Under the pieces are notes generated by a model, which did no database searches, was not told the DNA's origin, and worked only from the letters and a program-made list of their open reading frames with translations. DNA of 64,000 nt from a virus (lineage: Duplodnaviria; Heunggongvirae; Uroviricota; Caudoviricetes), in the IMG/VR virus record IMGVR_UViG_3300028591_000112, positions 31,934-95,933 of that record, one strand, 5' to 3'. Each line of letters opens with the position of its first letter. The stretch's first letter is position 1. Position numbers and translations under genes: made by a program. This document shows positions 40,471-64,000 of the stretch, one piece after another.

Positions 40471-41061
40471 TTATATATGAAAAGTTTTTTTAATAGATGA
40501 ATCTAATCTGCTTAAGCAGCTATGCTCTTTTAAAAATAAATAAAAATTTTCTAAATTTACATTATTTCCATTATAGTAAGTATAAAAATCAAAATCTAAA
40601 TCTACATTAAAGTCTTTTGAATCACTTAAAAAACGTCTGCATATCTCTTCACAATTTGGTTTATCTTCTCGATTTAAAGAGCGCATTAAACGAGTTTTAT
40701 CTTCGCAAGCAATGAGAATAGGAGTAATATCTAAATTATTATCTTGTAATAAACACTCTAATGCATGGATATTAAATACTCCTATATTAATATTATTTTC
40801 TTTTAAATCATCTCTTGCTGTACCATAAAATCAATTATTAAAACTTGTTGCTTCTAACATTGTTCCATCTAAAACTTTTAGTCCAAACTCTTCTTCTGTT
40901 AGAAAATGATAATTTACATCTTCTTTTTCATATTCTCTTTTTGGTCTTGTTGTTGTAGTAATAATTTTATTAAAACCAGTTTTATTAACTATATAATTTA
41001 ATAAAGTATCTTTACCACATCCGCTAGGGCCAAAAAGGGCAATAACTTTTATTTTATTCAT
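40471..41061 (-). CDS. gmk: guanylate kinase-like nucleoside monophosphate kinase
   Basis: P-loop GPSGCGKDTL, TTTRPKREYEKEDVNYHFLTEEEF, FYGT. Two ORF-track fragments joined through TGA. Start overlaps the dnaE end. Confidence 0.65.
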
Positions 41062-46819: not shown

Positions 46820-46825
46820 TTTTAT

Positions 46826-48024
46826 TAATCCTTTCTTATAATCACTAGTTTTTTAGCTGCTCTAGTGCATGCAGTATATAATCATTTTTGATGTTCCTGT
46901 TTATCATATGGGAAGCCTTCTTCTATAACTAATACATTATCTCATTCACTGCCTTGCGATTTATGACATGTAATCGCATATCCATAAGTAAATTGATGCG
47001 GGATACTATTTTTATATTGTTTATGTTTTCCCATTCTATATAATGTTTTCCAATCTAAAGAAGATTCACCTGTTAAAATTAAATTTTTATCCATATCTAA
47101 TTGTCCATAATCTTCTTCTGTGTCAGAAATAAAATCTGCATATAGAATAGGTATAAATTTTTGTTCGCCTCCACATAAATAACCAGGTATTCTTAAAGTT
47201 GAATTAAAACTATTTTTTAAAAAACCAATAGTCCCATTTACTAGAGGATTATTATTTGTTGAAATTGTATCTCAATCATTTTTTAAACAAATAACTTTAT
47301 CTCCATCTTCTGGGTCTTTATCTCGTCCTAAGAGTTGTCTCATTTGATTATTAAGAGCAACTCTAGTCGCATTTGTTGAACATATAATCTGGTCTGCTCA
47401 TTGCAACATACCTGTTGTAAGTTCTTCTTTATCTAATATTTGAACTTCTTTTCCAATGAAATGATTTAAAGGTTTTCCTACCCTTATATCCATTGTTAAT
47501 TGAATAATCTCACTTTGATCCTCTTGTCTCATAATCTCATCTAAGAAAATATGAGGATGCTCTAATAAATGATTATCTTCATCTTTATTAACTGGCGGCA
47601 ATTGACCTGGATCTCCTAAACATATAATATGAACTTTATATGTAGACAATCTCATAATTAAATCTTTAGGCACCATACTACACTCATCAATAATAACAAT
47701 TTTTTCTTTTATTGAAACAACTGGTTTTCTAAAAAAAGTCCCATCTGGCTTAGGAATAGATTCAAAAAGTAATTTATGTAAAGTACATACATTTTTATTA
47801 CCTTTTTTTTGTAAAACTTGTGTAGCCTTTCCTGTAAAAGATGTGTAAACAATATCTTTTTCAGGGTCAATTCCATAATCTTGAAGGGCGTCTACAATAA
47901 ATTTAATTAGAGTTGATTTTCCTGTACCAGCATATCCGCTAATGATAGTGCATTTTTCTCCTGCAGTATATCGAGCTATTGCAATTTTTAATCCTTCTAA
48001 TTGTTTCTTATTTAATTCTATCAT
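46826..48024 (-). CDS. Dda/RecD-like SF1 DNA helicase
   Basis: Walker A GYAGTGKST, Walker B IIDECSM, C-terminal ITCHKSQGSEWDNVLV motif. One TGA read through. Confidence 0.7.
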
Positions 48025-48085: not shown

Positions 48086-49882
48086 TTAAAAGTTATATTT
48101 ACTCTGCCCAATAATTTCATAATCTTCAATTAGAAGTTGAGGAGTAATATTTCCATTTCATTCATTAGCATTGCACTTTCCTATTAAATTAATTTCTATA
48201 TAACCGTCACTATATAATCTATCATATTCTTCTTGAGAACTATTAAATTTTATAATACTTATTTTATTAGGTAATGTAATTTTCAAAGTTGGTTTTTTAT
48301 CAGGAGACATTAAAGTTAAGTTGTCTTTAGTTATTTTTAAATTTTCAATACATATTAAACTTTCATCTATATCTTGACCTCATATATCAGATAAATTAGC
48401 TATATCTAAAATAATATTTGGATTAACATCTACTCCTTTAAATATGTAATCAACATAATATAATGGTTCAGATTCCATATTTACAAGGGCTATATCAGTT
48501 AGTTCTATAAATTTTTTAATATTTTCTTGTTTAATACCAATACCAAAAGCATTTTGATGCCCCTCTGCATATTCTACTAGCCCAGTTTCTTGACATATAT
48601 CTTTGAAGTTTTCTATACCAGATTTAGAATATCCACGTGCACTACCTTGATAAATAATATCATAATGTATATTTTCATCTGGGTCAATAGCAATATCTTG
48701 TACTAGATGTTTTGTCAACATTAATACAGGTCTTTGATATTTAGCCATTATTTTATTGGCTATTAAACCTGCGATATTTGGATCTATTTGCCCAGGCTCT
48801 AATAAAAACATAAGAACCTTATGCTTCATCATATTATTTTCCTCTATCATTCCTTCAACAAGTTCCATACCTTTATCTTGTTCTCTTGTTTGTCTACTTT
48901 TTACATTAGTAGCAGTACGTAAAGCTTGGTCTACTAATTTTTCCATTTCACCTAGCTTATGTCCGCGTTTATTTGATAATATTTCTTTAAATGCTTCTGA
49001 TTTTAGCATTGATTTAAATAATATTTCTTTTTCTTCTAATGTTCCACTTCTAACCATTGAGTTTATAAATGGGACTATATAAAATGCTGCTCCTATTGGG
49101 GTTATTTTATTACCTAAAGAATAAGAGTTTTTTTCTGCCATTCCATATATAAATGGGTTTTTTATATTTTCACTGCGGAAACCTTTGGTTATAATATGTT
49201 TAGTTTCTATTGATTTAAGACTCATCATATCGCCGCAATTTCCAAGAGCAGCAAGGTCTATATATTGTTCTGCATTAAACCCACCTCTAATTTTATCAAA
49301 ATAACGACAAAATTGCCATACAACTCCAGCACCTGATAATTGCTTATTTGGATAATTAGATAATTGATTATTTATTACAATAGCATCTTCAGAGATATAA
49401 GGCGCCTCATGGTGGTCTAAAATAATAATTTCTCTACCTTCTTCTTTTAATTTTTTATGATATTCATAATCATTACTTGCGGCATCAGGTATAATAATTA
49501 ATTTAAAATTATTTTTTTCTATATAATCTATACAGTCACTTAATCCATGAGTTTTGTCTTCATGTAAATAATATTTTAAATGATTAGTTACAAAAGATGG
49601 AAATAAATCATATAAATAATTTATAAGTATTGCGGCGGCCGTGTATCCATCACAATCGCAGTCTACCAATACCAAAGTGTCGTTATTTTCATTTATAGCC
49701 TTGGCTAAGATTAAAATAGCTTGCTTAATGACGTCTTGACCAAACATTTCCGCATTATTAATATCATTATCTGTTGTGTTTAAATAGTGATGAGTTTCAC
49801 TTAAAGGAATACCTCTGTTAAATAGTATTTGTTGTTCTGGACTTAATCTTGTGTCTATTTCATTTATTAATTTATATTTCAT
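48086..49882 (-). CDS. recJ: RecJ-like DHH-family single-strand DNA exonuclease
   Basis: VDCDCDGYTAAAIL and IIILDHHE (DHH motifs), DHHA1-like AEGHQNAFGIGI. 500 codons without TGA, then one TGA and a 98-codon tail to TAA at 48086. Confidence 0.65.
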
Positions 49883-49896
49883 ATATATTATCTCCT

Positions 49897-50988
49897 TTAA
49901 ATACTAAATCTCTTATTATATAATAAAATAAATTTCTCTTTTTGACAATCTATGGGGGAATCCTTATATCCTAAAAGATTTTCCTTATCAAAAATATAAC
50001 TTATCTTTGTATATTTACTATATTTTTTATTTATTTCTTTAAGTTTTTTTACCCATCCTAAATGTTCTTTATCACCTAGTTCAATATATTGTCTATCAAA
50101 AGCAATAATAATTTCTTCTACTCCTAAATTTAATAATAATTGAACTTGATATTGAGATAAGGTACTGCCGCATACTGCAACAGATATATCATTTTCTTCT
50201 CCAAAATAACTTGCATATAACAAGCAACTTTTTTCAGATTCAAAAACAATAGCTTTTTTTATTCTTTGTATATTTTGTTTACTAAAATTTAAGTTATATA
50301 AGTTAAAACCAAGAGGATGATTATATAAAGTATGGTTTAAATACATTGGACGATATTTTCCATATACTTCATTCTCTTGAATTAGTGTTCTTTCTCTAAT
50401 TCCTACTAAATTATTATTTTCATCATAGTGCGGAATAACTATTCCTTGAGAAGAGGGATTATAACATATATTATGAGTTTTGATTATCTCTTTTGATATA
50501 CCTTCTTTTTCCCATGGAAGTATGTGCGGATGAGGTAAAAAATTTAAAATATTTTTATCATAAAAACTTAGTTGAACTTCTTTTTTATTATTTTCTTTAT
50601 TTAAAATTTTGGCATATTTATTTAAAATTTTCCAATCTTGAAGTTCTTCTTGTTCATCAAAAAAATTTTTATTTTCCTGCTCGATCCCGCAAAAATTACA
50701 TACATAGTTTATTGCTTGCGGCAATTGATATGTTACCTTATTATCAGATAACACTTTCATTGTTAATTCAAAAATATCAAAAGTTGTTGAACATTCTGTA
50801 TAACAACGAAATAATCTTGTATTGTTATAATAATATAATTTATGTTGTTGCCCACAATGGCAAATTGTACGAGAAATAATAATATTATCTTTTAAGATAG
50901 GTTCCGCATTTCATGAAGCTAAAAGATTAAAAACTTGCTCTAAAGTAATTTGTTGTTTAATTTTTTCTAATTGTTCTTTTTCATCCAT
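49897..50988 (-). CDS. dnaG: DnaG-type DNA primase (zinc finger + TOPRIM)
   Basis: RBS gagaggagg. CHCG...CYTEC zinc finger upstream of one TGA. TOPRIM AIVFESEKSCLLY...EIIIAFDRQ. Confidence 0.65.
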
Positions 50989-51005: not shown

Positions 51006-52544
51006 TTAAAAGGCACTAGCTGATATAGCCGGATTAATTTTAATTTTTAAATCTGGCAATTCAACTAATTCATAATTATATGTTGTAGCAAACATTGGTT
51101 CGATACGGCATATTCCTCTATCTGCTTTACACCATAATAAAATATCTTTATATTGACCTCGTCTATTTTTATATATAGACATTTTTATAACAGGTTCTGG
51201 TAAACCTTGTTTAACTAATAGTGGTTTTAGCGCCTCTCTATCTTCTTGAGATACTTGTAACATAATTGCGCCATAATCAACTTTATCTGCAATTGCTTTT
51301 GCACCACGCAATAAATTTTGGTCATATTGTTGCGCAGTAACATAGTCCGCATTTAATTGAGTACTTGTTAAAATAAATACTCCATATTCATTACATAAAT
51401 CTTTTAATCTTATTGCTAGCATAAATAAAACATTATCTTCTCTTAATCCTTTTATTCCTGCTTTAGAAGAAACTTCTCCTAATATTTTTAAAGATGTATG
51501 TAAATAATCAAAGAATATATATCTTACTCCCCATTCCTGTATTCCATATTTAATTGCATTTTCTATGTCTTGTAAACTAAAATCTGGCAATCTCTTAATA
51601 TGTAACGGAGATGTTTTTATAAGTTTTGCAGCTTGCATAACTCTATCTAACTCTCCATCTTCATATTTATTATATATAATATGAGCTTCATTAACGCCGC
51701 TTAAAAAAGCTAACATCATAGTTTGAATTTCATCAATTTCTTGTTCTGTTGTTATATATAAAGTAGGTTCTTTTGTTCCATTTGTATCCCATTGATGCGT
51801 TTCTAGATTATATATTTGATCGCAAGCTATATTACATGCATCTGCGATCATAGCACGAGTTTTTCCTACTCCGGTTGCCGCAGAACGTAAATATAATTTT
51901 TTTAAACGAGCTCCACGAGTAACAGTATTAATTAAAGGGCCGTACATTGGATATCCTATTTCTGGATTCTTTTGTAATCGTTCAATTAATTCATCTATAT
52001 CATTTCCAGCTTGAACATATTCTTCATCTGTTCCATCAACATATTTTAATTTAATTGTTGTTATTTTTTTATCTATAATTTCTGCTATTTCTTCAAGAGA
52101 GGTATTATCTAACCAATCTTCTTGTGCTTGTTTTTTCTTCCCATCTAAAATATTATCTACATCATATAGCCAAGATAAGTCCATACCAATTCTATCATAT
52201 TCTCTTAATAAAGTAAATTTTTTCATACGAGTATAATAATAATCAAATGTTGAAATTTGAACTATTTCAGATAATTGTTGTAAATACTCTTGTCCTTTAT
52301 TTTCTTGATATATTCCATATGATTTCGGTCTATTATATAAATAATCTTCAATAGCAGTAATTGTTATTTCTTTTGCTCCTAATGCATGTAAATTGAAAAT
52401 TGAACCAAATAAAATTTTATGAAATTCATTAGAGAAATCTTCTTCATAAAATTTATATTTTTCATTATCTAATAGATTAGGATTATTAAAAATATTTCCT
52501 ATAACTTGTATAGTAGATGGTATATCTTCATATTTACTTTTCAT
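51006..52544 (-). CDS. dnaB: DnaB-like replicative helicase
   Basis: Walker A RSAATGVGKTRAM, Walker B IFFDYLH, RecA-like C-terminal domain. No TGA in 512 codons. Confidence 0.8.
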   Translation of the reverse strand: MKSKYEDIPSTIQVIGNIFNNPNLLDNEKYKFYEEDFSNEFHKILFGSIFNLHALGAKEITITAIEDYLYNRPKSYGIYQENKGQEYLQQLSEIVQISTFDYYYTRMKKFTLLREYDRIGMDLSWLYDVDNILDGKKKQAQEDWLDNTSLEEIAEIIDKKITTIKLKYVDGTDEEYVQAGNDIDELIERLQKNPEIGYPMYGPLINTVTRGARLKKLYLRSAATGVGKTRAMIADACNIACDQIYNLETHQWDTNGTKEPTLYITTEQEIDEIQTMMLAFLSGVNEAHIIYNKYEDGELDRVMQAAKLIKTSPLHIKRLPDFSLQDIENAIKYGIQEWGVRYIFFDYLHTSLKILGEVSSKAGIKGLREDNVLFMLAIRLKDLCNEYGVFILTSTQLNADYVTAQQYDQNLLRGAKAIADKVDYGAIMLQVSQEDREALKPLLVKQGLPEPVIKMSIYKNRRGQYKDILLWCKADRGICRIEPMFATTYNYELVELPDLKIKINPAISASAF

Positions 52545-53046
52545 TTTCTTCCTCCTCTATGCTGAATAATTTTGGTGGTTGAACATAAACTTGCGGCGGC
52601 GCAATTTCAATTTCTTCAACTTTATTATTAATTCGTTTACCTTCATTTATCATATTTGCAATAAATAATCCATAATAATAAGTTTTTGCATCATTATAAA
52701 TATAAGGTAAAATCCCTATTCCGCCATTTGCATCTTCTATAGAATTTCTTTTTATTTCAAACCACCATTTTAATGCTTTTAACATTCCGCTATAAGTAAA
52801 ATTATATTGTTTTTTATAATCTGTTATTTGTCTTGTTATTTTTGCGGGAATTGCTGTATAACAATATGTTTTTTTAATATATTGTAATAAGTTTTCATAA
52901 TCTATTTCTTCTTGCGTTTTATTTGATTGAACTTCATCATGACATTTTTTATGCGCATATCTACGAGCACTTACTGCAACTCATTCTTCTTGGTTTCTAT
53001 CAAACTGCTCTCCGCAATAATAACATTTTGCTATTAATTTAGCCAT
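52534..53046 (-). CDS. zinc-ribbon protein, possible helicase loader/replication accessory (170 aa)
   Basis: Strong RBS taaggaggcggaaATG. CYYCGEQF...AHKKCH. One TGA. Lies immediately upstream of dnaB. Confidence 0.35.
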
Positions 53047-53135: not shown

Positions 53136-54158
53136 TTAAATTTTACTTTTTTCTAAGTCTTTTAATTCTTCTACAATTAAAGACAATGCTTCAACCTGTT
53201 CTCTTGAACATTGGCTTACTTTATTTCCTCTGCCTAAATATTTTTCAGTAATTTGTGTTATTCTAGGAGAATATTTTTCTTCAAATGAGTCTCCTGCATT
53301 TTTTATAATTCTATTAACACAATTTTGGAAATCAGCCATTAAATCATCAAAATCAAGATTATCTTCTTTATTTAAATATAAATTACTTCTTTCATTAGTA
53401 AAATTTTCTTTACCTTCTTCCGCCGCTTGTTTTTCAATAGCTTCAGATATAGCATTTGTTAAATTAGTATAATTAAATTCTATATAGTCAGGAGTATATT
53501 TGAAACGAGATCCAGCCATATATCTATTAGTTCCTCTCATAAATAACATAGTTTTATCTCCTTCATCTGTTGTAACAACTCTAGAATATCCAATTATATC
53601 AGCCATACGAGAAACAATATTTGTACCTCTCTTATCAAGAGTAGGAACAATTTGATTATACTCTTCTCCATTTTCGTTTTTAAATGTTTTATCTGTTGCA
53701 TGACTAATTAAAACTAGACCATAGTCCATTTGAACTATTTTTCTTAAAGTTTCATCGAACTCTTGTCCAACCATTCCATATCCTTTACCATATCCTATAT
53801 CGCTAATTGAATCAACACCAAAACTTCCATCAGGTCTTTTAGCATTGTCGCATATATATTTAGTACAATAGTCATATGCTATATCAACAGTATCTACTAT
53901 AATTGTTGAGAATTTTGCTTTTACTTCAGGTTTTTCTAGTTCTCTTAAAGTTTGTTTAAATTCAGACCATTTATTAATAGGTTGTGCCATAACTCCAGGT
54001 ATTGCATTATAACCTTTTTCAAAAGCTAATAAAAGAGCTTCTGGGAAATGAGATGCGGTAGTAGTTTTACCACTTTTAGGTTCACCATAGAAAAAAACAG
54101 AATAGCCACGCAAATCTTTGCTAACTTTATGAGGTTGTAAATTCATTAAATCTATCAT
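53136..54158 (-). CDS. Sak4-like RecA-fold ATPase (AAA_24 family) recombination/annealing protein
   Basis: Walker A FFYGEPKSGKTT, Walker B IIVDTVD, overall AAA_24 architecture. No TGA. Confidence 0.6.
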   Translation of the reverse strand: MIDLMNLQPHKVSKDLRGYSVFFYGEPKSGKTTTASHFPEALLLAFEKGYNAIPGVMAQPINKWSEFKQTLRELEKPEVKAKFSTIIVDTVDIAYDYCTKYICDNAKRPDGSFGVDSISDIGYGKGYGMVGQEFDETLRKIVQMDYGLVLISHATDKTFKNENGEEYNQIVPTLDKRGTNIVSRMADIIGYSRVVTTDEGDKTMLFMRGTNRYMAGSRFKYTPDYIEFNYTNLTNAISEAIEKQAAEEGKENFTNERSNLYLNKEDNLDFDDLMADFQNCVNRIIKNAGDSFEEKYSPRITQITEKYLGRGNKVSQCSREQVEALSLIVEELKDLEKSKI

Positions 54159-54180
54159 ATTTTACTCTCCTTTATTTAAA

Positions 54181-54212
54181 AAAGCCGATTAAAATAAGAA
54201 ATCGGCTGTTTT
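54181..54212 (-). terminator. terminator-like hairpin at the 3' end of the 313-aa gene
   Basis: Minus strand aaaacagccgatt tcttatttta atcggc tttttt, overlapping the stop codon. Confidence 0.35.
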
Positions 54213-55130
54213 ACTTGCTGTTGTTGCAGCTGTACTAGTTGTTGTTCCAGCAGCTTTATTTGCTTTATATTCTTCTGCTCTTTTCTTAATGTCTGCTAAA
54301 TAAACTTCTCTATTTTGTAATGCTTCTTTTACTTCTTTTTCTGTTAAGATATTTTCATCATTAAAATCATATGGTACTTTTGCAGTTCCAGTTATAATCC
54401 ATTCTTTATTAGAATTTCTATAAGTTCTTACTGCAGGTTCACCAAATGCACTTTCAACTTCTACAGTTGATGTACTAGTTTCAGATATAATTTTTCCCCA
54501 AACTCTTGTATATATAGGGTTAGCTCCAGTTGCACCTAAATTTTCAAAATATTTCATACCATCTGCATTTTTAACTTTAAATTCAACAGGTAGTATATCA
54601 TTTCTAAAATTAAATACAGCTCCTCTTACTGCTACATAATCTTCATTAATATGTTTTTCTTCATCTTTATCTACATGTGTTACATTAGTAATTAACATAT
54701 CAACAGAGAAAGTATTTCTTTCATTTTCTTCCCCTAATTCATTAACTAAAGTAACAAAACCACCTTCATTAGTTTTTGCAGATACTAATTCATCATTTGC
54801 ATTATAAAAATCATTTAATGCTAGGGCAGTATCAATTCTAACTTTTTGAGCTTCATCTTTTCCTACAGATACCCAAGTTTTATTTTCATCCATAATTTTC
54901 TTTAAATTTGCATATGTAGCATTTTTTACACCATTTTTATTTGCTTCTGTTACATATGTAAAATGTACTTTTATAACATTAAGTCCTTCTTCATCAGTAG
55001 CAATTTCTAAATTTCCACTAATAAATTCTTTTCCAAAATTTGCTGATGCTTGATTTTGTACTTGCTTACTTGTTAAATCATGTTGATAAATTCTTCCACT
55101 AATTCTTTCTGTATTTTGTGCTTTTCTCAT
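54189..55130 (-). CDS. hypothetical protein (313 aa), candidate ssDNA-binding partner of Sak4
   Basis: Intact ORF with no TGA, sitting between a promoter and sak4. Thr/Ala-rich C-terminus ending ADFLF. No recognisable OB-fold motifs, so the call rests on synteny only. Confidence 0.25.
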   Translation of the reverse strand: MRKAQNTERISGRIYQHDLTSKQVQNQASANFGKEFISGNLEIATDEEGLNVIKVHFTYVTEANKNGVKNATYANLKKIMDENKTWVSVGKDEAQKVRIDTALALNDFYNANDELVSAKTNEGGFVTLVNELGEENERNTFSVDMLITNVTHVDKDEEKHINEDYVAVRGAVFNFRNDILPVEFKVKNADGMKYFENLGATGANPIYTRVWGKIISETSTSTVEVESAFGEPAVRTYRNSNKEWIITGTAKVPYDFNDENILTEKEVKEALQNREVYLADIKKRAEEYKANKAAGTTTSTAATTASKTADFLF

Positions 55131-55204
55131 AATTTTCTCTCCTATCTTTTTATTTTTTTCAATAATTACTCATTTATCTTCTGATTTAATTATTTCTTAA
55201 TATA

Positions 55205-55233
55205 ATTATAATAAAAAATTTCAATAAAATCAA
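55205..55233 (-). promoter_or_regulatory. sigma70/sigmaA-type promoter
   Basis: Minus strand TTGATT, 17-nt spacer, TATAAT, upstream of the 313-aa gene. Confidence 0.45.
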
Positions 55234-55246
55234 TTATGAATTGCCT

Positions 55247-56152
55247 TTACTCGTTTCCTTTTTGGCTATTAAATCCAAATTGATTAGATTGATATAGGTT
55301 TATATAGAATTTTTCTTTTTCATTAAGCTCTTCTTTTTTACATTTTTCTAGTAATTCAAAAGAAAAGTTCTCTAAACCATCGCTTATCATTGATTGATAT
55401 AGTTTATTACCTGCGGGGGTGTCGATCCCTAGACCAGCTTTAGCATGGTTTTTCCAACGTGTAGCCATTTCAGTACTTTGTCCTATATAAACAAAATTAT
55501 TTAATTGATTTGTAATTTTATATATCCCGCATACTTCTGCGGTAGATGAGCCTAAAACATTTGCACACACTTGATTCATAGGTTTTTGATAATAACTTTG
55601 TCAAATTAACATACGAAGAATACGCGTGTCATTTAATTTATATTCAATATCTTTTAAAATTTTAACATCTTTTAAATCATTTTCTTTAATTTGAGGACAA
55701 TAGAAAGATTTTTTATCTTTTATTTCCTGTTCTTTTAATTGCGCTTCAAGTGCGGCCGCCCTCGTAGAGAATAATTTATCGAGGTCTTTCTCGATCAAAC
55801 CGGTTTCCGCAAGTAATTTATCTTGTCTTTTTTCATAGCTCATTTTAAGAACATTTATTGCGGTATCAAATTCTTCTTCTGCCTCTTTATATTTATTATC
55901 TAATACTTTTTGATATTGTGAAAAAGCATTTTGTGTAATTTGTTCAGTATTGTTAACTGAATTATTTAAATTTTCTATTTCTAATATTATATTATCTTTT
56001 TGTTTTTTTAAATTTTCAATTTCATTATTTAATATTTTTTGTTGATTAATTGTATTTTTATTTATTTCTATTGTTTTTATATTTTTCTTTTTTCATAAAT
56101 ATCAAAAAATTATTACTAATAATAGTAAACATATAATTATAATATCTTTCAT
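55247..56152 (-). CDS. membrane-anchored coiled-coil protein fused to a C-terminal minimal GIY-YIG nuclease domain (301 aa under code 4)
   Basis: N-terminal TM helix IIIICLLLLVIIFWYLW, then a long coiled coil. TGA at 55601-55603 in frame, then GIYKITNQLNNFVYIGQS...ATRW...EKFYINLYQSNQFGFN. I checked the frame codon by codon from 56152. Confidence 0.45.
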
Positions 56153-56164
56153 TTTTAATACCCT

Positions 56165-56205
56165 TTCAAAAAGAAAAGTTGAGTATTTCTACTCAACTTA
56201 GTTAT
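56165..56205 (-). terminator. rho-independent terminator
   Basis: Minus strand aagttgagta gaaa tactcaactt ttcttttt. Confidence 0.55.
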
Positions 56206-56210
56206 ATAAA

Positions 56211-56486
56211 TTATTCAGCGTCGTCTTCTGCGTCGATGTCTAAATCTTTACCTTCAGCAGTTAATACGATATGTTTAACTTTTTTATGAGTTCCATCTTC
56301 TAATTCAACTTCTGCTTCTTTTCTTTCCATTAAACCTTTTCTGCAGAATGCTGATGTAACGATACCATTAACTTGTCTTGGATTTAAACCAGTTGCTTCA
56401 GCGATATCAGCTGCAGTAATATCATTTCCTTCATTTTCTTTTACATAGTTATAAACTAATTTACTATTTTCACTAAATTTTGCCAT
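56211..56486 (-). CDS. small HTH DNA-binding protein with acidic C-terminal tail (91 aa)
   Basis: ITAADIAEATGLNPRQVNGIV helix-turn-helix. C-terminal DLDIDAEDDAE. Its own promoter and terminator. Confidence 0.45.
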   Translation of the reverse strand: MAKFSENSKLVYNYVKENEGNDITAADIAEATGLNPRQVNGIVTSAFCRKGLMERKEAEVELEDGTHKKVKHIVLTAEGKDLDIDAEDDAE

Positions 56487-56532
56487 ATTGTTTTTTCTCC
56501 TTTTTCTATTATTTATTTTATTTTATATGAAT

Positions 56533-56561
56533 ATTATAATTAAAAATTTGGCTCTTTTCAA
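56533..56561 (-). promoter_or_regulatory. consensus sigma70/sigmaA promoter
   Basis: Minus strand TTGAAA, 17-nt spacer, TATAAT, about 45 nt upstream of the HTH gene. Confidence 0.5.
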
Positions 56562-56616
56562 ATATATATTCTTTATTTATATATTTATTATAAACTAAAA
56601 TTTTTATATTATCAAA

Positions 56617-58533
56617 CTAACAAAACTTTAATCTAAATTCATCTTCCGTAATAATTGGTATTCCGGATTTTTTAGCGGCAATATTTTTGCTTGATTGACT
56701 ATTTATATCGTTATTTATTAAATAAGTTACTTTGCTAGATATAGAATCAACCACTTTACCACCCTTATTTTCAATATATGCTTTTAATTCATTTCTATTT
56801 TTAAATGTTAATAATTTACCTGTAATACAAAACACTTCTTTACTTAAGGTATTATCTTCTTTTTTATCATCTTTTTCTTGAATATTAAAAGCATATGATA
56901 CAACTTCATCAAGCTCTTTATAATTGAAATCTAAAAGAGCGGCGGCCATTGCTTCACCAAAACCATTATATTGTGTGAAATCAAATTTTGAATTTACCTT
57001 TTCTCTAAATTCACCATAAGTTTTAATATATTTACATAACTCTTTCGCAATAGAGCGGCCTATTAATGGGATACCAGCTGCCGCAAGGACAGCATCTAAA
57101 CTTGGATTTTTACTATTTTCTATGGCGTTCAAGATCCTCTCCACAGACTTTTCACCAAAGCCTGGTTTTGTTTTCCATTCATTTGAGAAGTTTTCTAATT
57201 TATATATATCAACAAAATTAGAAATCCAACCCCAGTTTATAAGTTTCTCGAGAGTTGCCGTTGAAAGCCCCTTAATATCTAATCCAGTTTTTCCACAAAA
57301 ATGGTCTAATCGGTTTATCAATTTACCTTGACATTGTGTATTGGTACAATATAAGGTAACTACTCCATCATTTTCATTTAGACGAGTAGCTCCGCCGCAT
57401 ATAGGACATTTATCGCATTTAAATTCAGATATTGTTAGCGGTTTTTGTTCTGCTTTTGATATTTGTGGTATTATCATATTTGATTTAAATACCCATATTT
57501 TTTGACCTTTATAAGGTTGTCCTAATAGTTCTGACATGATACTTACATTATGTAAACTTGCTCTTGAAACCTCTGTTCCGTCAATTTCAACAGGATTAAA
57601 AATAGCAACAGGTGTAAGTATACCAGTTCTACCCATACTCCATTCAATATTCTGTAAATAAGTTTCATATTCTTCATCATAAAATTTATATGCTATCCCA
57701 CCTTTAAAATGATGGTCTGTTTTTCCTGCCGCATCATAAATTCTATTTAAGTTATATTTAAAAACTACACCATCAATAGGATAATTCTTTATATCAGATT
57801 GTTCTTTTATATAACTAATAATCCAATTAATATTGGTTGAAGTATCTACAATAAAAGGGACTGTTGTAAAACCCAAAGTATCTAATAAATGTAATTCAGA
57901 TTCTAGACTAATAAACTTATTATCGTTATCAATAATATCCCATGCAATAAAAGTTAATTTTCTTTTTGAACTTTCTTTACTATCTAATAGTCTAATACTT
58001 CCTGCAGCAAAATTTCTAGGATTTTTATATTCATTTTCGAACTCTTTAAAATCTTCATAAGTACAAATAATTTCTCCATCAATAATTAATTCATCATTAT
58101 AATTTATTTTATTAGGAATATTTTTTACTTGTAAAGCATTATGTAAAATATCTTCTCCAATTTCGCCATTGCCGCGAGTTTCTGCAGAAAATAATTTACC
58201 ATTAATATATCTTAATGAACAAGTTAATCCGTCCATTTTTGCCATAGCAATATATTCTTCTTTATCACAAAAAGACGCTATTACATTTATATCTTTAGTT
58301 TTATCAAGAGATAACATAAGATGATTATGTTTTACTTTTTTTAAATCATTTACTAATTGGTAATTAATATTTTGAGTAGGACTATCTTGATAATATATAT
58401 TATATTTATTTTCTAAATTTTGTAATGTAAAATACATATTATCCCATTCACTATCTGAAATTTCTGGATGTCCTTCATCATATAGTTTAGTATAATAATT
58501 TAATTTATCAATTAAATCTCTAATCTCTTGCAT
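56617..58533 (-). CDS. ligA: NAD-dependent DNA ligase
   Basis: KMDGLTCSLRY (KxDG adenylation motif), OB fold, Zn finger CDKCPICGG, HhH and C-terminal BRCT. 638 codons without TGA. Confidence 0.8.
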   Translation of the reverse strand: MQEIRDLIDKLNYYTKLYDEGHPEISDSEWDNMYFTLQNLENKYNIYYQDSPTQNINYQLVNDLKKVKHNHLMLSLDKTKDINVIASFCDKEEYIAMAKMDGLTCSLRYINGKLFSAETRGNGEIGEDILHNALQVKNIPNKINYNDELIIDGEIICTYEDFKEFENEYKNPRNFAAGSIRLLDSKESSKRKLTFIAWDIIDNDNKFISLESELHLLDTLGFTTVPFIVDTSTNINWIISYIKEQSDIKNYPIDGVVFKYNLNRIYDAAGKTDHHFKGGIAYKFYDEEYETYLQNIEWSMGRTGILTPVAIFNPVEIDGTEVSRASLHNVSIMSELLGQPYKGQKIWVFKSNMIIPQISKAEQKPLTISEFKCDKCPICGGATRLNENDGVVTLYCTNTQCQGKLINRLDHFCGKTGLDIKGLSTATLEKLINWGWISNFVDIYKLENFSNEWKTKPGFGEKSVERILNAIENSKNPSLDAVLAAAGIPLIGRSIAKELCKYIKTYGEFREKVNSKFDFTQYNGFGEAMAAALLDFNYKELDEVVSYAFNIQEKDDKKEDNTLSKEVFCITGKLLTFKNRNELKAYIENKGGKVVDSISSKVTYLINNDINSQSSKNIAAKKSGIPIITEDEFRLKFC

Positions 58534-58549
58534 ATGTATCTCTCCCTTT

Positions 58550-58578
58550 CTTTATATATATTATAAGATAATTTTTAT
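58550..58578 (-). promoter_or_regulatory. consensus sigma70/sigmaA promoter for ligA
   Basis: Minus strand TTGCAA, 17-nt spacer, TATAAT, upstream of RBS aagggagag. Confidence 0.5.
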
Positions 58579-58599
58579 GTTATTGCAAATTTCTTTATA

Positions 58600-58631
58600 T
58601 GAAAAAAGTGTTGTTATAATTTAACAACACT
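58600..58631 (-). terminator. terminator hairpin overlapping the gyrA stop
   Basis: agtgttgtt ataattt aacaacact followed by ttttttc on the minus strand. Confidence 0.45.
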
Positions 58632-60941
58632 CTTAACATTATTTTGAATAAGTTTAACTCCAATAGTAGTTCTTCCTTGAGTATTTAATTCAGTTGCGGG
58701 GATACATATACTATTAGGAGTTCCTATTAATAATAAACTATCATCATTAGTTATTGCGGCCGCACCTGCAAGGTTAATACCTAATTTTAATCCCTTGCCT
58801 CCGCGTCCTTGTAATGAGAACTCAGATATATCACATTTTTTCCCATAACCCTCTACACTAATAAAAGCTATTTCTTTTGTATCTTTAGAGATAGGAATTC
58901 CGCAAACAACCTCATCATCACTAGCTAAATTAATACTTTTTACTCCACTAGTTACTCTACCTATTGCCGCAATATCTTTAGTAGTAAATCTTATGCTCAT
59001 ACCATTTTTAGTACAAACTAAACATTCTTCGTCCTTCATAAATAAAACATTAGCAATACTATCGCCATCTTTTAATTTAATAGCTTGAGTTCCTGTAGAT
59101 TTTTTAATTGATTTATATTCACTTAATAAAGTCTTTTTAAATAAACCTTGTTTTGTTATAAATACTACATAATCAGCATCTAAATCTCTGTCCATACTTG
59201 CGGCAGCAATAATTTTTTCATTTGGTTCCATGCTAATTAAACTAGCTAAATTTTGTCCTTTTGATACATTTGTACCAATAGGTAGTTTATCAACTAATAT
59301 TTTATACATTTTACCTTTATTAGTAAACACTAATAAGTTATCAATAGTATTAGTTTTTATAGTGGCTAAAATTGCATCATCTTCAGATTTAATTCCTTTT
59401 CCGCCTCTTTTTTGAGTTCTAAAACTTGTTTTAGGAATACGTTTAACATCTCCAGTTTGAGATACCATTACAACAACATCTTCAGGGATAACTGTTGCAA
59501 TTTCTTTTTCTTCTTTTGGAACTTCAATTTGTGCTAGTTCAGTTTTTCTTTTATCTCCATATTTTTTAACTAAATCAGATAATCTTGTTCTAATTATTGA
59601 TAATTGAGCATCTTTATTGGTTAATGTATAATTATATCCATCTATATCATGTTCTAACTGGGCTTTTTCTTCATTTAATTCTATCTTTTCTAATTTCGCA
59701 AGAGAACCTAATCTCATAGCTACAATAGATTTTGCTTGGGGTTCAGTAAATTTATATTCTTTAACCAAACCTTCTTTTGCGGCAGCACTTGATTCAGACT
59801 TTTTAATAAATGTAATTATATTATCAATATCTTCCAATGCTTTAATTAATCCATTTACAATCTCTAGGCGGGCTTCCGCAGCATTTAAATCAAATTTAGT
59901 TTCTTTAATTAAACAATTAATGTTATGGTCTAAATATATTTTAATACAATCTTTTAAATTTACTTCTGTTGGAGTTTTATCTATTAAAGCAACTTGATTA
60001 TATGAAAAACTACTTTGTAAATCTGTTTTTGCAAACAATCTATTAGCTATTGCATCAGGATTAACTCCTTTTGCACATTCTACAACTATTCTTAAACCTT
60101 TTTTATTACTTTCATTTCTAATATTTACTATTTCCGCAATATCAGTTTCTGCTACTTCACCTATTTCCGCAATAAGTGCTTCTGTTGTAGTACCATAAGG
60201 AATTTCATAGAATACGATATTTTGTCCTTCAGTTTTATATTTAGCTCTAACTTTTACACTTCCATGTCCTGTTTTCATGATACTTGGAATATCATTCATA
60301 TTAATAACAATTCCGCCTGTTGGAAAATCAGGGCCAGGTAACATTGGTTCTTTACCGTCCATATAATCATATATAGCTGTTGCTACTTCTCCTAAATTAT
60401 GTGGGGCAAAATTACAAGCCATTGCAACACCAATACCTGTATTTGGATTACATAGTAAATTAGGGAATATAGCAGGTAATGTAACTGGCTCTTCTGCATC
60501 TTCAGAGTAATTAGGAATAAAATCTACATTTTGCTTTTTAATTCCTTTTAACATACCGTCTTCTGCAAGTTTAGATAACCTTGCTTCTGTATAACGCATA
60601 TGAGCAGGACCATCTCCATCAATATTTCCATTGGAACCATGGACTTCGATTAGAGGGTACCTCATAATCCAACTTTGGGAAAGACGAATCATTGCTCCAT
60701 ATATTGAACTATCTCCATGAGGATGGTACGACCCCATAACATCTCCTACAATACGAGCAGATTTTACATGTGGCTTAGAACTCCCATATCCACGTTCAAA
60801 AGCCCCCCATAATATCCTTCTAGCTACTGGCTTTAGTCCTGAGGTAGCGTCGGGTATAGCTCTGTCTTCATTTACTGCTGCGGCGTACTCAATAAAATTC
60901 TTACTTAATTCATTTATAATGTCATTAGTTTTGTTATCCAT
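58614..60941 (-). CDS. gyrA: type IIA topoisomerase subunit A (GyrA/ParC-like)
   Basis: RAIPDATSGLKPVARRIL, YHPHGDSSIYGAMIRLSQSWIMRYPL, MRYTEARL (active-site Tyr region). 775 codons without TGA. My own indexing puts the ATG at 60940 (one off from the ORF track). Confidence 0.8.
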   Translation of the reverse strand: MDNKTNDIINELSKNFIEYAAAVNEDRAIPDATSGLKPVARRILWGAFERGYGSSKPHVKSARIVGDVMGSYHPHGDSSIYGAMIRLSQSWIMRYPLIEVHGSNGNIDGDGPAHMRYTEARLSKLAEDGMLKGIKKQNVDFIPNYSEDAEEPVTLPAIFPNLLCNPNTGIGVAMACNFAPHNLGEVATAIYDYMDGKEPMLPGPDFPTGGIVINMNDIPSIMKTGHGSVKVRAKYKTEGQNIVFYEIPYGTTTEALIAEIGEVAETDIAEIVNIRNESNKKGLRIVVECAKGVNPDAIANRLFAKTDLQSSFSYNQVALIDKTPTEVNLKDCIKIYLDHNINCLIKETKFDLNAAEARLEIVNGLIKALEDIDNIITFIKKSESSAAAKEGLVKEYKFTEPQAKSIVAMRLGSLAKLEKIELNEEKAQLEHDIDGYNYTLTNKDAQLSIIRTRLSDLVKKYGDKRKTELAQIEVPKEEKEIATVIPEDVVVMVSQTGDVKRIPKTSFRTQKRGGKGIKSEDDAILATIKTNTIDNLLVFTNKGKMYKILVDKLPIGTNVSKGQNLASLISMEPNEKIIAAASMDRDLDADYVVFITKQGLFKKTLLSEYKSIKKSTGTQAIKLKDGDSIANVLFMKDEECLVCTKNGMSIRFTTKDIAAIGRVTSGVKSINLASDDEVVCGIPISKDTKEIAFISVEGYGKKCDISEFSLQGRGGKGLKLGINLAGAAAITNDDSLLLIGTPNSICIPATELNTQGRTTIGVKLIQNNVKSVVKL

Positions 60942-60942
60942 T

Positions 60943-61656
60943 ATTAAAATCCTCCTTTTCCAATAATTTATCTATTGTTATATTATTAAAATTCTTATAA
61001 GAAATTTCTATCAATTTTTTATTATTATTTATACACCATTGTTTTTTTATTTTATCTCTTTTTATTTGATTTGTCAATTTTTCTTTTGTATTTCAGCCTA
61101 TATTTAATGTTTCATAGTGTTGACTACCTTGATATTCTATTAAAATATTGTATTCAGGAAGAAAAAAATCAAACCTTAACTTAGCATTAGTTTCAGGATT
61201 AATGCAATCTTCAAAAGTTTTTTCTTTTTCAAAAATGATATTATTTTCTTTTAGAAGATTAGATATTCTTTCTTCGCCTAAAGATTTAATGCATCCACAA
61301 GAATGTGTATGTCCTCTTCTTAAATCGATACCATTTACAATGATTTGATTACCGCATTTACATTGACATAATCAAAAAACATCTTTATTAGCATTATTCT
61401 TCTTAGCTTTTTCTATAACTGTCAGCTTCCCATATACATTTCCTATTTCTTCTTTTATAAGAGATGCTCTATTTTTATCATCAGGGCATCGTGTAATTTT
61501 TTGTAAAGAATCAGATCTTACAGAATGAATCTTATCACAATTATCACAAGAGCATAACCAAAATGCTCTTTTTTGTTGATTTGTTCTGTCTATATCTAAT
61601 TTTATTACTGTCAAAGGTCCAAATTTTTGACCTGTTAAATCTTTTCTATTCGGCAT
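60943..61656 (-). CDS. free-standing endonuclease: tandem Cys-rich DNA-binding repeats + Vsr/PD-(D/E)xK-like C-terminal domain (about 237 aa)
   Basis: Two repeats (GQKFGPLTVI...FWLCSCDNC and VYGKLTVI...VFWLCQCKCG...HSCGC); the second Trp is encoded by TGA, giving an internal control for TGA = Trp. C-terminal FDFFLPEYNILIEYQGSQHY resembles the Vsr/DUF559 nuclease core. Inserted between gyrB and gyrA. Confidence 0.5.
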
Positions 61657-62218
61657 TATAAGAAGCCTCTTTACTATGAAGTTTGATGAAATCTTTACGA
61701 CTTTGAATAGCAGTCCCCATTAAATCATTAAATAATTTATCTGCGGCCGCCGCATCATCAACAGTTATTTGTTTAATAATTCTATTATCGGGATCAGTTA
61801 GTGTTTCTTCAGTTTCGTCTACGGACATTTCACCTAAACCCTTCATTCTATTAACAGTTATTTTTTTATCTCCTATTGATTTTTTAAATTCTTCTAATTC
61901 TTCATCATTTTTAATATATTTATATTCTTTACCTATTGTTACTTTATATAATGGTGGAACTCCTGCATATATATATCCATCTTCAATTAATTGAGGACAG
62001 AAATTCCATATAAAAGTATAGAACAAATTTTTAATATGCGCTCCATCAACATCAGCATCAGATTCAATAATAATTTTGCCATATCTTAAACTATCTTTAT
62101 CATAAGTAACTTGCATAGTTTTAGTATCAATATATAATCCAAAAGCATCTATCATAGTCATAATTTCCGCATTTTTTTGTATTTTATCTAAACTTGCTTT
62201 TTGTGTATTAAGTATTTT
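61646..62218 (-). CDS. gyrB: type IIA topoisomerase subunit B (GyrB-like), exon 2
   Basis: Starts KILNTQKASLDKI (completing RG|KILN). Contains GKIIIESDADVDGAHI and YAGVPPLYK. TAG at 61646. Confidence 0.7.
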   Translation of the reverse strand, partial: KILNTQKASLDKIQKNAEIMTMIDAFGLYIDTKTMQVTYDKDSLRYGKIIIESDADVDGAHIKNLFYTFIWNFCPQLIEDGYIYAGVPPLYKVTIGKEYKYIKNDEELEEFKKSIGDKKITVNRMKGLGEMSVDETEETLTDPDNRIIKQITVDDAAAADKLFNDLMGTAIQSRKDFIKLHSKEASYNAE

Positions 62219-63356
62219 CGTTTTCCCTTATATTTCTATAAGAACTGACTATCTCTTACTCTCTGAGTTTGTCATCACTCTTCTTCGAGCACTCCATTTC
62301 GAACTGCGTATCAATAGCAGCCCTACTCCCAGTCTAACCCGGGATAGTCGATACATGAGTTAATCTACATTTTTATAAGTTTCTCTTTTTATAATTGCTG
62401 CAATAGAACTTTCAGATAAATTATATTTTTCTCCTAATTCTCTATAACTAACAACTCCTTTTTTATAAGAATTTCTTATTTCTTTTACTTGGACATTAGT
62501 AAGTTTTGCATTAGTATGTCTTACCTGTTCTTTGTTTGGAATATTTCCAACAGTGACATAAGTTTGACCTAAAACTATTCTTTTAAAAGTTTGTTGATTT
62601 GAATATAAATCTTTAAAATCTTGATAAATTTCTTTTATTGGTTCTCCATCAATATATCTTTGTCTAATATCCCAAACTTGTTGATTTGTTAGTTTTGCTC
62701 GAGGATGATTTTCACTCATTAAAGATTTATTTTGTTCCCTTGTTTTTTGTCTTTTTAATTCGGTTTCTTCAGAATAAATATTTGGACTCCAGTATTGTCC
62801 ACCTTCAGTTGAATTATATCCATTTTTAAAAGTATCAAATTCTTTTATATATTTAATTTCTAAATCATCTAATTCTTTTTCTTCACATAGTTTTAATATA
62901 ATTACTTCAAAATTATCAATTCCATATTTTCTAAGAGCTTGATAAAACTTAGTATTATAATTACAATTATTTTCATTCTTATAATCTACTAAATGATGAC
63001 TTTGAAATCTTTTTCTAATATTTTTGCTTTGTCCAATATATTTTTTATTGTTTATTAAATTTACTACCATATAAATTCCACTATTAGCTGGTAGATTTTC
63101 TATATTTTTCATATTTATCTCTCCTTTGTCAATAATATATGAAAAATAGTTTTAAGTATTTATATATTTTTGTCCGTTTTTAGTATTTTAGATTAACATT
63201 TTCACACGGGATTACCTTCGCCTAAACATATTTTGACATATATGTGTAACGGTCAGGCTTCCCCGTTAGCATACATTTCTGTACACCCCACTGATAAGTG
63301 GTTAGAAGTGTAGAGGCAAATATTATTTCGGTATAGCCTTACGCTATCCTAAGTCT
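62219..63356 (-). other. group I intron interrupting gyrB at PVRG|KILN (TOPRIM)
   Basis: 5' exon ends AGAGGT (U). Intron ends ...gaaaacg (G). Core GUAUCGACUAUCCC and CAGCCCTACTCCC are identical to the nrdD intron. Carries a GIY-YIG ORF. Confidence 0.65.
62360..63112 (-). CDS. GIY-YIG homing endonuclease within the gyrB intron (250 aa)
   Basis: RBS acaaaggagagataaatATG. GIYMVVNLINNKKYIGQS...KYIKEFDTFKNGYN. TAA stop, no TGA. Confidence 0.75.
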   Translation of the reverse strand: MKNIENLPANSGIYMVVNLINNKKYIGQSKNIRKRFQSHHLVDYKNENNCNYNTKFYQALRKYGIDNFEVIILKLCEEKELDDLEIKYIKEFDTFKNGYNSTEGGQYWSPNIYSEETELKRQKTREQNKSLMSENHPRAKLTNQQVWDIRQRYIDGEPIKEIYQDFKDLYSNQQTFKRIVLGQTYVTVGNIPNKEQVRHTNAKLTNVQVKEIRNSYKKGVVSYRELGEKYNLSESSIAAIIKRETYKNVD

Positions 63357-64000
63357 ACCTCTCACTGGCATTACCGCTTGGAACTCATTATCTCTTGCTG
63401 ATTTTAAGTTTCCGCTTGCGGAATCTCCCTCTGTGATATATATTTCACATTTGTTTCTATCTTTTGAATAACAATCAGCAAGTTTACTATCAAATTTTAA
63501 TGCTTTTTCTTTTTTCTTATTAGTTTCTCTTACTCTCTCACGAGCGTTTTTAGCTGCCTCTCTAGCTTTACGAGCGGCTGCCGCCTTATCAAAAATAGTT
63601 TTAATTTCTTTTTCATTATTAACTAACCAATATTGTAAATTAGTAGCAATAATAGTAGAGAAATTGCTCATATCTAATTTAGTAACAGTTGATTTTACTT
63701 GTGCATCATATGCAACATTAGGGGCAGTCATATTAAATACTATATACATACCTTCTTGTATATCATCTCCTGTTAAATTTTCTTCTTTATCTTTTAACCA
63801 TTTTTTATCTTTAAAGAATTTATTAAATTCTCTTGTAATTATAGTTTTAACTTGCGTTATATGAGGGCCTTTCTCTGTAAGACCTGTATTTACATAAGGA
63901 ATTAATGTTAATGAATAATTAGATGTATATGTTAATACCATGTCTAATTTTTCTTTTCCTTCTGCATACTTCATGTCAAATCTATTTGATATAATTTCTT
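63357..64000 (-). CDS. gyrB: type IIA topoisomerase subunit B (GyrB-like), exon 1 (3' part; N-terminus beyond the window)
   Basis: Transducer domain LTGDDIQEGMYIVFNMTAPNVAYDAQVKS and TOPRIM start EIYITEGDSASGNLKSARDNEFQAVMPVRG. The reading frame continues upstream past 64000. Confidence 0.7.

Follow-up and report, generated by a model that had tools for sequence, protein, structure and literature searches.

In this study, we show that positions 55247 to 56152 of a 64-kb stretch of phage DNA (the window, by which we mean the whole stretch analysed) contain, on the minus strand, a reading frame in which TGA codes for tryptophan, and which its sequence identifies as one gene for a 301-aa membrane-anchored nuclease, not as two genes. 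The gene is a clade-specific and positionally fixed member of the replication module of a large clade of gut phages of approximately 115-150 kb, and it is not mobile. Taken together, these findings lead us to favor, on balance, the explanation that a single gene with TGA as tryptophan encodes a DNase which would face the cytoplasm, would be confined to the membrane and would belong to the gut-phage replication module.

Genetic code and integrity of the reading frame

The initial annotation described a membrane-anchored coiled-coil protein fused to a GIY-YIG nuclease domain across a single TGA at 55601. There are in fact three in-frame TGAs in this frame, at codons 17 (56104-56102), 20 (56095-56093) and 184 (55603-55601), and a standard-code reading from the ATG at 56152 would end after 16 codons. 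TGA is an ordinary tryptophan codon in the window, and the genome is TGA-recoded (code 4). When TAA and TAG are taken as the only stops, 53 non-overlapping genes (39 ending in TAA and 14 in TAG) cover 94.8% of the window, compared with 67.7% under the standard code, and the 107 in-frame TGAs, which occur alongside 150 TGG codons, are spread over 31 of these 53 genes. Reassignment to tryptophan rather than to another residue is supported by TGAs that align with conserved tryptophans. Codon 184, which had been taken for the fusion junction, corresponds to tryptophan in 116/116 full-length homologues, and it is TGG in two related loci whose gene copies have no in-frame TGA (L003 and L005) as well as in Phass-1. 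Moreover, a TGA of the RecD-like helicase gene (46825-48024) aligns with the W of QGSEW in D. radiodurans RecD2 (3e1s), and in a paralogous GIY-YIG gene another TGA is aligned with W. No tRNA genes, including suppressor tRNAs, were found within the 64-kb window. Programmed stop-codon read-through and selenocysteine insertion were ruled out, as either would need a single isolated stop and there are three TGAs in the gene and 107 in the window.

The sequence does not stem from an assembly error: the public contig L002 (run SRR8436538), which was assembled separately, matches it with 100% identity over 2853 bp, all three TGAs included. Public collections already contain the identical 301-aa protein (P0001), called on a 131.6-kb contig. 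At least 10 representative proteins in the databases are cut off at ...PRILRMLI, exactly before W184, and these are standard-code miscalls. The orthologue in Phass-1, a code-15 phage, is a 326-aa protein that is continuous once 8 in-frame TAGs are read as Gln, and the GenBank annotation cuts it into two fragments at in-frame TAGs. What looks like a fusion across a stop codon results from applying the wrong genetic code, and the at least 10 truncated proteins and the Phass-1 annotation indicate that this artefact is present in public data too.

Gene and protein architecture

The open reading frame runs on the minus strand from the ATG at 56152 to the TAA at 55249-55247. Its parts are as follows:

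56176-56199, minus strand: terminator-like hairpin (10-bp stem, then a T-run) that separates the nuclease gene from the small gene upstream
56161-56167, minus strand: Shine-Dalgarno-like GAAAGGG, 8 nt 5' of ATG 56152, read from the sequence
55247-56152, minus strand: complete CDS of the predicted membrane-anchored coiled-coil GIY-YIG nuclease, 301 codons plus TAA, translated with TGA as Trp
56093-56143, minus strand: TM helix, residues 4-20 (IIIICLLLLVIIFWYLW), then KKK; predicted N-out/C-in from family statistics
56102-56104, minus strand: TGA at codon 17, read in frame as a Trp of the membrane interface; homologues vary here among hydrophobic residues (F/L/I)
56093-56095, minus strand: TGA at codon 20, likewise read in frame as an interfacial Trp, from the translation
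55715-56092, minus strand: helical stalk (coiled coil), residues 21-146, from the AlphaFold2 helix and family length statistics
55532-55714, minus strand: helical mid-domain, residues 147-207 (FYC...PRILRMLIWQxYYQKP...C.NVLG), from invariant columns and AlphaFold2 helices
55601-55603, minus strand: codon 184, TGA, the invariant mid-domain Trp (W in 116/116 homologues)
55577-55579, minus strand: internal ATG (Met192), not a start codon, without Shine-Dalgarno sequence and within the conserved mid-domain
55256-55531, minus strand: GIY-YIG catalytic domain of I-TevI type, residues 208-299, with Y211, Y222, R232, H236, E280 and N295 invariant

The N-terminal TM helix proposed from the first reading of the sequence is borne out: the protein begins with MKD-IIIICLLLLVIIFWYLW-KKK, a hydrophobic helix followed by three lysines, and continues into a long helical segment. 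Across the family, a median of 2 residues precede the TM helix, which is approximately 19 residues long, and the median number of K/R in the 15 residues after it is 4. Because of this family-wide K/R enrichment after the TM helix (the positive-inside rule), we infer an N-out/C-in topology in which the protein crosses the membrane once, its body lies in the cytoplasm and hardly any of its N-terminus is exposed outside.

The AlphaFold2 model, computed with 60 homologues, has a mean pLDDT of 91.5. A continuous helix spans residues 2-146 (pLDDT there mostly >90), further helices past the stalk are at residues 148-151, 157-172 and 176-200, and the beta-alpha GIY-YIG fold occupies residues 209-292. 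The coiled coil of about 170 aa that had been suggested stands in so far as the helix is long, but its soluble part is approximately 125 residues, and what follows is a helical mid-domain of approximately 60 residues. If straight, the stalk would measure up to ~19 nm, and it is probably oligomeric. Weak matches to Rz-like spanins, FtsB, DivIC and DUF948 were disregarded as reflecting TM plus coiled-coil composition.

Upstream of the GIY-YIG domain the protein contains a conserved block, ...TRAAALEAQLKEQEIK..FYCPQ...RILRMLIWQSYYQKP..C.NVLG, and the invariant columns of the mid-domain are R177, L179, M181, L182, W184, C196 and G201. No Pfam family matched the mid-domain in any of 60 family members, and there was no match to DUF4041.

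The presence of a complete GIY-YIG domain of approximately 95 aa at the C-terminus was anticipated correctly. It is matched by Pfam (PF01541), TIGRFAM and PHROG, and a profile search of the PDB returned I-TevI as its sole match (E 8e-11). The domain has the features of the GIY-YIG superfamily of the PF01541, I-TevI type, namely the GIY and YIG motifs, an Arg, a His, a metal-binding Glu and an Asn in a mixed alpha/beta fold of ~90 residues. Residues Y211, Y222, R232, H236, E280 and N295 are invariant across the family, and we take them to be the counterparts of I-TevI Y6, Y17, R27, H31, E75 and N90, at a constant offset. Since these catalytic residues do not vary, the nuclease is expected to be catalytically active. 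The domain order given initially, TM helix, coiled coil and a minimal GIY-YIG domain with no DNA-binding tail, was right and is conserved; the protein stops 6 residues beyond the GFN motif.

Family size and continuity across the junction

Full-length homologues (n = 116) are 290-340 aa long and 45-63% identical, and many are encoded on contigs of 117-148 kb. A profile search with the mid-domain recovered 935 clusters at 50% identity with E <= 1e-3, of which 383 had E <= 1e-10; the total is a lower bound, and the family comprises at least 935 clusters at 50% identity. The TM helix, GIY and YIG were all present in 102 of the best 149 representatives from this search. Against representatives, the 150 matches listed for the mid-domain profile all belong to the family (E < 1e-17), a saturating result in which remote links are not visible. 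When 10 kb of the window was compared by megablast with cultured and deposited phages, no match was obtained, and in a tblastn search against phages only Phass-1 matched beyond the nuclease domain. The family is thus very large, uncharacterised and phage-borne.

It had also been suggested that the nuclease might be a separate minimal protein starting at the internal ATG at 55579. This ATG is present and lacks a Shine-Dalgarno sequence, as had been noted, but it does not begin a gene. Family members have 107-146 residues (median 115) between the TM helix and the TRAAA motif, and always 77-79 residues from TRAAA to GIY. The two-gene alternative is rejected because of this fixed TRAAA-GIY spacing, the missing Shine-Dalgarno sequence at 55579 and the continuous ORFs of relatives that have no TGA in the gene. 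Full-length homologues are all continuous across the junction, none of them having the two halves as separate genes.

Genomic neighborhood

The genes around the nuclease gene in the window, all on the minus strand, are the following:

63339-63974 and 61646-62161, minus strand: GyrB-like topoisomerase II, in two pieces
58614-60941, minus strand: topoisomerase II A
56617-58533, minus strand: NAD-dependent ligase
56211-56486, minus strand: HTH-like protein of 91 aa whose tail is acidic (weak HTH match, E 0.0024)
54189-55130, minus strand: YorF-like
53136-54158, minus strand: Sak4/AAA_24 (YorG)
52534-53046, minus strand: YorH-like
51006-52544, minus strand: DnaB
49897-50988, minus strand: primase
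48086-49882, minus strand: RecJ-like exonuclease
46825-48024, minus strand: RecD-like helicase
44674-46023 and 41054-43285, minus strand: PolIII alpha, in two pieces

Nine related loci at 26-60% identity share this order: topoB-C, topoA, ligase (in 6/9), the small protein, the nuclease gene and 0-3 variable genes, beyond which follow YorF, Sak4, YorH, DnaB, primase and RecJ. The small HTH-like gene lies directly upstream of the nuclease gene in 8/9 of the loci. These nine loci span three genetic codes, with a TAG-recoded phage and relatives whose gene copy is free of in-frame TGAs among them, and they include MAG bins labelled Bacilli, Anaeroplasmatales and Clostridium. With regard to expression, two terminator-like sites were found where 0.1 would be expected by chance, and no strong promoter belonging to the nuclease gene itself was found.

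The replication genes of the clade phages resemble those of SPbeta. In SPbeta and in Enterococcus phages of ~140 kb the yorF-K module is present and the nuclease gene is absent, indicating that this module does not require the nuclease gene; from the same absence it can be argued that the gene is an add-on. As a separate observation, the strict synteny of the gene and the insertions bearing homing endonucleases that it has received in relatives are more like a core DNA-metabolism gene than an accessory exclusion gene.

Three genuine free-standing GIY-YIG homing endonucleases are present in the window, where they split GyrB, PolIII alpha and NrdD. Each has an N-terminal GIY-YIG domain followed by 110-160 further residues, and the nuclease domain described here is 32-41% identical to them, which is consistent with its being a domesticated homing-endonuclease core. 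In some relatives the nuclease gene is itself interrupted by an insertion that bears a homing endonuclease; in one orthologue (L009) the insertion is 1.26 kb long, and an Rfam search of it found no group I intron model.

Profile comparison with SNIPE

The initial view that no membrane-tethered GIY-YIG nuclease had been described is outdated. SNIPE (PD-lambda-1) is an inner-membrane protein with a cytoplasmic body and a GIY-YIG-superfamily nuclease, which cuts lambda DNA only during injection, spares the resident prophage and contacts the tape measure protein; without its TM segment it becomes a toxic nucleoid-cutting enzyme, and membrane-localised host DNA is left uncut (Vassallo 2022, PMC9519451; Saxton 2026, Nature, PMC13190303). 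Membrane-tethered GIY-YIG nucleases are no longer unprecedented in view of SNIPE.

The SNIPE gene was traced by means of a 146-nt fragment rebuilt from published primers, and its family was then collected for profile-profile comparison. It was located in 131 complete E. coli genomes, where it is annotated as "DUF4041 domain-containing protein". The E. coli copy retrieved encodes 500 aa and lies in a lambdoid prophage, adjoining ren, P and O. PF10544, PF13455 and PF13250 are present in each of the 120 SNIPE relatives listed, and SNIPE itself, as a positive control, matched the PADLOC PD-Lambda-1 model at 1.8e-198. The PD-Lambda-1 HMMs had no match at E <= 1 in the window protein and two of its relatives. 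Likewise, none of 60 family members matched PF13250 (DUF4041; E <= 1), T5orf172 or MUG113, and PF01541 was the only nuclease family found.

With regard to the features that characterize SNIPE, the window protein has the N-terminal TM anchor and, on its predicted topology, the cytoplasmic body, and it lacks DUF4041 and the T5orf172/MUG113 nuclease (PF10544, PF13455). In hhalign, the whole-protein profiles aligned with a probability of 63.5% (E 6.8e-5) over 72 columns of the stalk, up to FYCP in one family and GFYEP in the other, with 19 conserved columns skipped; the mid-domain, when compared with a 36-sequence SNIPE alignment, gave a probability of 0.9%. We conclude that, as judged by these profiles, the window family is an analogue of SNIPE without detectable homology and not a member of it. 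A membrane-anchored "inactive GIY-YIG-like" protein of JCVI-syn3.0 (PMC13621843) was also considered and set aside as non-significant and unrelated.

Discussion

We propose that the TM helix would anchor the protein while the stalk, the mid-domain and the catalytically intact GIY-YIG domain would project into the cytoplasm, and that a DNase of low specificity would be kept by this anchor and stalk within a shell beneath the membrane. The specificity of such an enzyme would most likely be spatial, because a sequence-reading DNA-binding tail is absent and, by analogy, because the TM segment of SNIPE keeps its nuclease off resident DNA. It is possible that the target is DNA that appears at the membrane once the phage genome is inside, such as superinfecting phage or plasmid DNA, in which case self and non-self would be told apart purely by where and when DNA appears. 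That incoming foreign DNA is the target and superinfection exclusion the function is a tentative proposal modelled on SNIPE; it is our leading candidate, at well under an even chance, and is followed by replication intermediates at the membrane and the host chromosome. We are comparably cautious about its evolutionary form, in which a homing-endonuclease domain would have been domesticated onto the anchor and the ~19-nm stalk to give an independently evolved counterpart of SNIPE that destroys entering DNA; this may be so, but we incline to doubt it.

The organization of the gene and its surroundings bears on several other explanations. A fusion made by read-through or selenocysteine-type decoding of one TGA, or two genes with the nuclease starting at ATG 55579, would be in keeping with a standard-code frame that is broken at 55601 and has an ATG 22 nt downstream, and with public gene calls that stop exactly at the junction. 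We nevertheless consider that it can be practically dismissed, given 3 TGAs in the ORF and 107 in the window, a junction codon that is an invariant Trp and TGG in relatives, continuous conservation, fixed spacing and no Shine-Dalgarno sequence before ATG 55579; moreover, a standard-code reading would already end the upstream "half" at codon 17. It also seems very improbable that the gene is a free-standing GIY-YIG homing endonuclease, a selfish element with an unusual N-terminus. Homing and intron endonucleases are the best family matches, and the catalytic domains of the three genuine ones in the window are 32-41% identical to it, but here the catalytic domain is C-terminal (208-299 of 301) and no DNA-binding family was detected in the protein. 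The gene keeps one syntenic position, between the small HTH-like and yorF-like genes, in nine diverged loci, it interrupts or abuts no split target gene in the window, and in some relatives it is itself the target of an insertion bearing a homing endonuclease. True membership of SNIPE/PD-lambda-1, as a very divergent branch from a common ancestor with a reduced DUF4041, would explain the same domain order and predicted topology as well as the whole-protein hhalign match over the stalk (63.5%, E 6.8e-5). That match, however, is of doubtful meaning, falling within the coiled coil and leaving out 19 conserved columns, the mid-domain reaches only 0.9%, no SNIPE-type HMM (PF13250, T5orf172, MUG113) matches among 60 members whereas SNIPE itself scores 1.8e-198 on the PD-Lambda-1 model, and the nuclease is from another GIY-YIG family (PF01541, I-TevI type); we therefore regard shared ancestry as highly unlikely.

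Two further explanations accept a membrane-anchored DNase and differ as to its substrate. The phi29 protein p16.7, with a TM segment, a coiled coil and a DNA-binding domain, has a layout comparable to that of a membrane-associated replication or recombination nuclease, which might nick DNA or recognize particular structures and work with Sak4, YorF, the RecJ-like exonuclease, ligase and topoisomerase at a membrane-attached factory. Such a role would fit the fixed position between the ligase and topoisomerase genes and the yorF-K module, the core-like conservation, and the insertions bearing homing endonucleases in relatives, as in PolIII alpha, NrdD and GyrB of the window. SPbeta and the Enterococcus phages run the same module without the gene, though, and I-TevI-type GIY-YIG domains are not known as structure-specific resolvases; we rate this role as rather improbable, while giving it serious weight. 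The protein could instead degrade the host chromosome as an analogue of T4 endonuclease II that supplies nucleotides, with the tether sparing replicating phage DNA. This we find unlikely: the tether would limit access to the nucleoid, no mechanism that would protect phage DNA was found, and SNIPE left membrane-localised host DNA uncut. Our preference thus remains with a membrane-confined DNase, facing the cytoplasm and encoded by one gene of the replication module. If it acts by exclusion, or by sparing self DNA through confinement, location as a discriminator between self and non-self would have arisen more than once, and phages would be using location-based discrimination against each other.

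Comparison with known systems

Several known proteins resemble the window protein in part. Homing endonucleases of the I-TevI and Seg type are mobile and have an N-terminal catalytic domain, a linker and a DNA-binding domain; in the window protein, by contrast, the catalytic domain is C-terminal, after the TM helix and stalk, a DNA-binding module is absent, and the gene position is syntenic in all relatives. T4 endonuclease II (DenA) is a small, soluble enzyme that tells host from phage DNA by base modification, and unlike the window protein it has neither membrane anchor nor stalk. The Uzume protein UzuA, a candidate single-gene defence system in PADLOC, also has a C-terminal GIY-YIG domain. 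The last ~95 positions of the UzuA profile were matched by two family members (E 6e-8 to 2e-7), in the nuclease domain only, and the window protein had no match to that profile at E <= 1. The phi29 protein p16.7 and RNase Y have an N-terminal TM segment, a coiled coil and a cytoplasmic C-terminal domain that binds or cleaves nucleic acid. They share this layout with the window protein, but their effector domains differ and there is no sequence relationship; the N-terminus gave a weak match to RNase Y in NCBIfam (E 0.043).

The closest parallel is with SNIPE. In both proteins an N-terminal TM helix and a cytoplasmic body (predicted for the window protein) are combined with an elongated helix, an intermediate domain and, at the C-terminus, a GIY-YIG-superfamily nuclease, and both are carried by phage genomes. 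They differ in that SNIPE has 500 aa, DUF4041, a long linker helix and a T5orf172/MUG113-type nuclease, whereas the window protein has 301 aa and its own 60-residue mid-domain, joined directly to an I-TevI-type PF01541 domain. The function of SNIPE has been demonstrated, whereas the window protein is known here from its sequence and predicted structure. It seems that the family shares the design logic of SNIPE, built around an I-TevI-type core and located in a replication module.

Genetic code of the window and of the nuclease family

The window (1-64000) is TGA-recoded throughout: in-frame TGA codons number 107 and are spread over 31 of its 53 genes; reading TGA as sense raises the coding density to 94.8%, against 67.7% otherwise. 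TGA accounts for approximately 42% of the Trp codons, and no tRNA gene, suppressor or other, was found within the 64 kb. This TGA share appears to be below that of native code-4 Mollicutes, so the recoding may derive either from a natively code-4 host or from the phage itself. Among the TGA-containing genes is one at 29306-31219 (-), with 8 in-frame TGAs, which encodes a 637-aa fusion protein in which a SAM-methyltransferase domain at the N-terminus precedes GT2 and GT8 glycosyltransferase domains; candidate substrates of this fusion are the cell envelope or phage DNA.

The use of TGA is uneven around the membrane-nuclease gene. Within 53136-60941, the five flanking replication genes (Sak4-like, YorF-like, small HTH-like, ligase and topoisomerase II A) use TGA for none of their 14 Trp codons (p = 0.0006 against the window average), in contrast to 3 of 4 in the nuclease gene at 55247-56152 (Fisher p = 0.005), whose first 20 codons hold two of its three TGAs. 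If infection switches TGA decoding on, this contrast could reflect a difference in the timing of translation, but the primase, RecJ-like, RecD-like and PolIII alpha genes likewise contain TGA.

The orthologue in Phage Phass-1 (L001 5455-6435, OQ749652.1) is a continuous 326-aa open reading frame with 8 in-frame TAGs read as Gln, whereas its GenBank annotation consists of a pair of unrelated hypothetical proteins, at 5455-5595 and at 6001-6435. The nuclease family is therefore present in standard-code, TGA-recoded and TAG-recoded phages.

Upstream region of the nuclease gene

Two features lie immediately upstream of the nuclease gene:

56176-56199 (-), strong terminator-like hairpin, separating the nuclease gene from the 91-aa HTH-like gene
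56211-56486 (-), conserved 91-aa HTH-like gene, upstream neighbour of the nuclease gene

No good promoter was found downstream of the hairpin, and expression of the nuclease may depend solely on read-through of this terminator. In eight of nine related loci the HTH-like gene immediately precedes the nuclease gene, so its product may be a functional partner of the nuclease.

Homing endonucleases in the window and in related phages

Several genes of the window are in pieces separated by GIY-YIG homing endonuclease genes:

63339-63974 and 61646-62161, two pieces of a GyrB-like topoisomerase II
62360-63112, canonical GIY-YIG homing endonuclease gene between the GyrB-like pieces
60934-61656, HNH endonuclease gene separating the topoisomerase II A gene from the C-terminal piece of the GyrB-like gene
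44674-46023, upstream piece of DNA polymerase III alpha (PHP and start of the NTPase domain)
41054-43285, downstream piece of DNA polymerase III alpha (end of the NTPase domain, finger domain and HHH)
43731-44369, free-standing GIY-YIG homing endonuclease gene between the polymerase pieces, which may represent an intron or a split gene
39165-40421 and 37127-37999, two pieces of anaerobic ribonucleotide reductase NrdD (Pfam NRDD positions 2-268 and 286-562)
38220-38990, third GIY-YIG homing endonuclease gene, splitting NrdD

The membrane-nuclease gene of some relatives is itself broken, directly after YIGQSVN (related locus L009, 3591-5847; database proteins P0129, P0160, P0215, P0226, P0257 and others). 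The L009 insertion, of about 1.26 kb, encodes a 314-aa GIY-YIG homing endonuclease; the part of the nuclease gene downstream of it lacks its own start codon, and Rfam found no group I intron at the insertion. Many database proteins terminate at this same site, several of them sharing the read-through tail YRPMKNFS.

Comparison with SNIPE

The retrieved copy of SNIPE/PD-lambda-1, the membrane-bound GIY-YIG-superfamily defence nuclease of E. coli, is located within a lambdoid prophage of the E. coli 118UI chromosome (L016 1807-3309), with ren and the P and O replication genes on one side and a P22AR antirepressor-domain gene on the other. Like the nuclease of the window, this SNIPE copy is phage-borne and adjoins a replication module.
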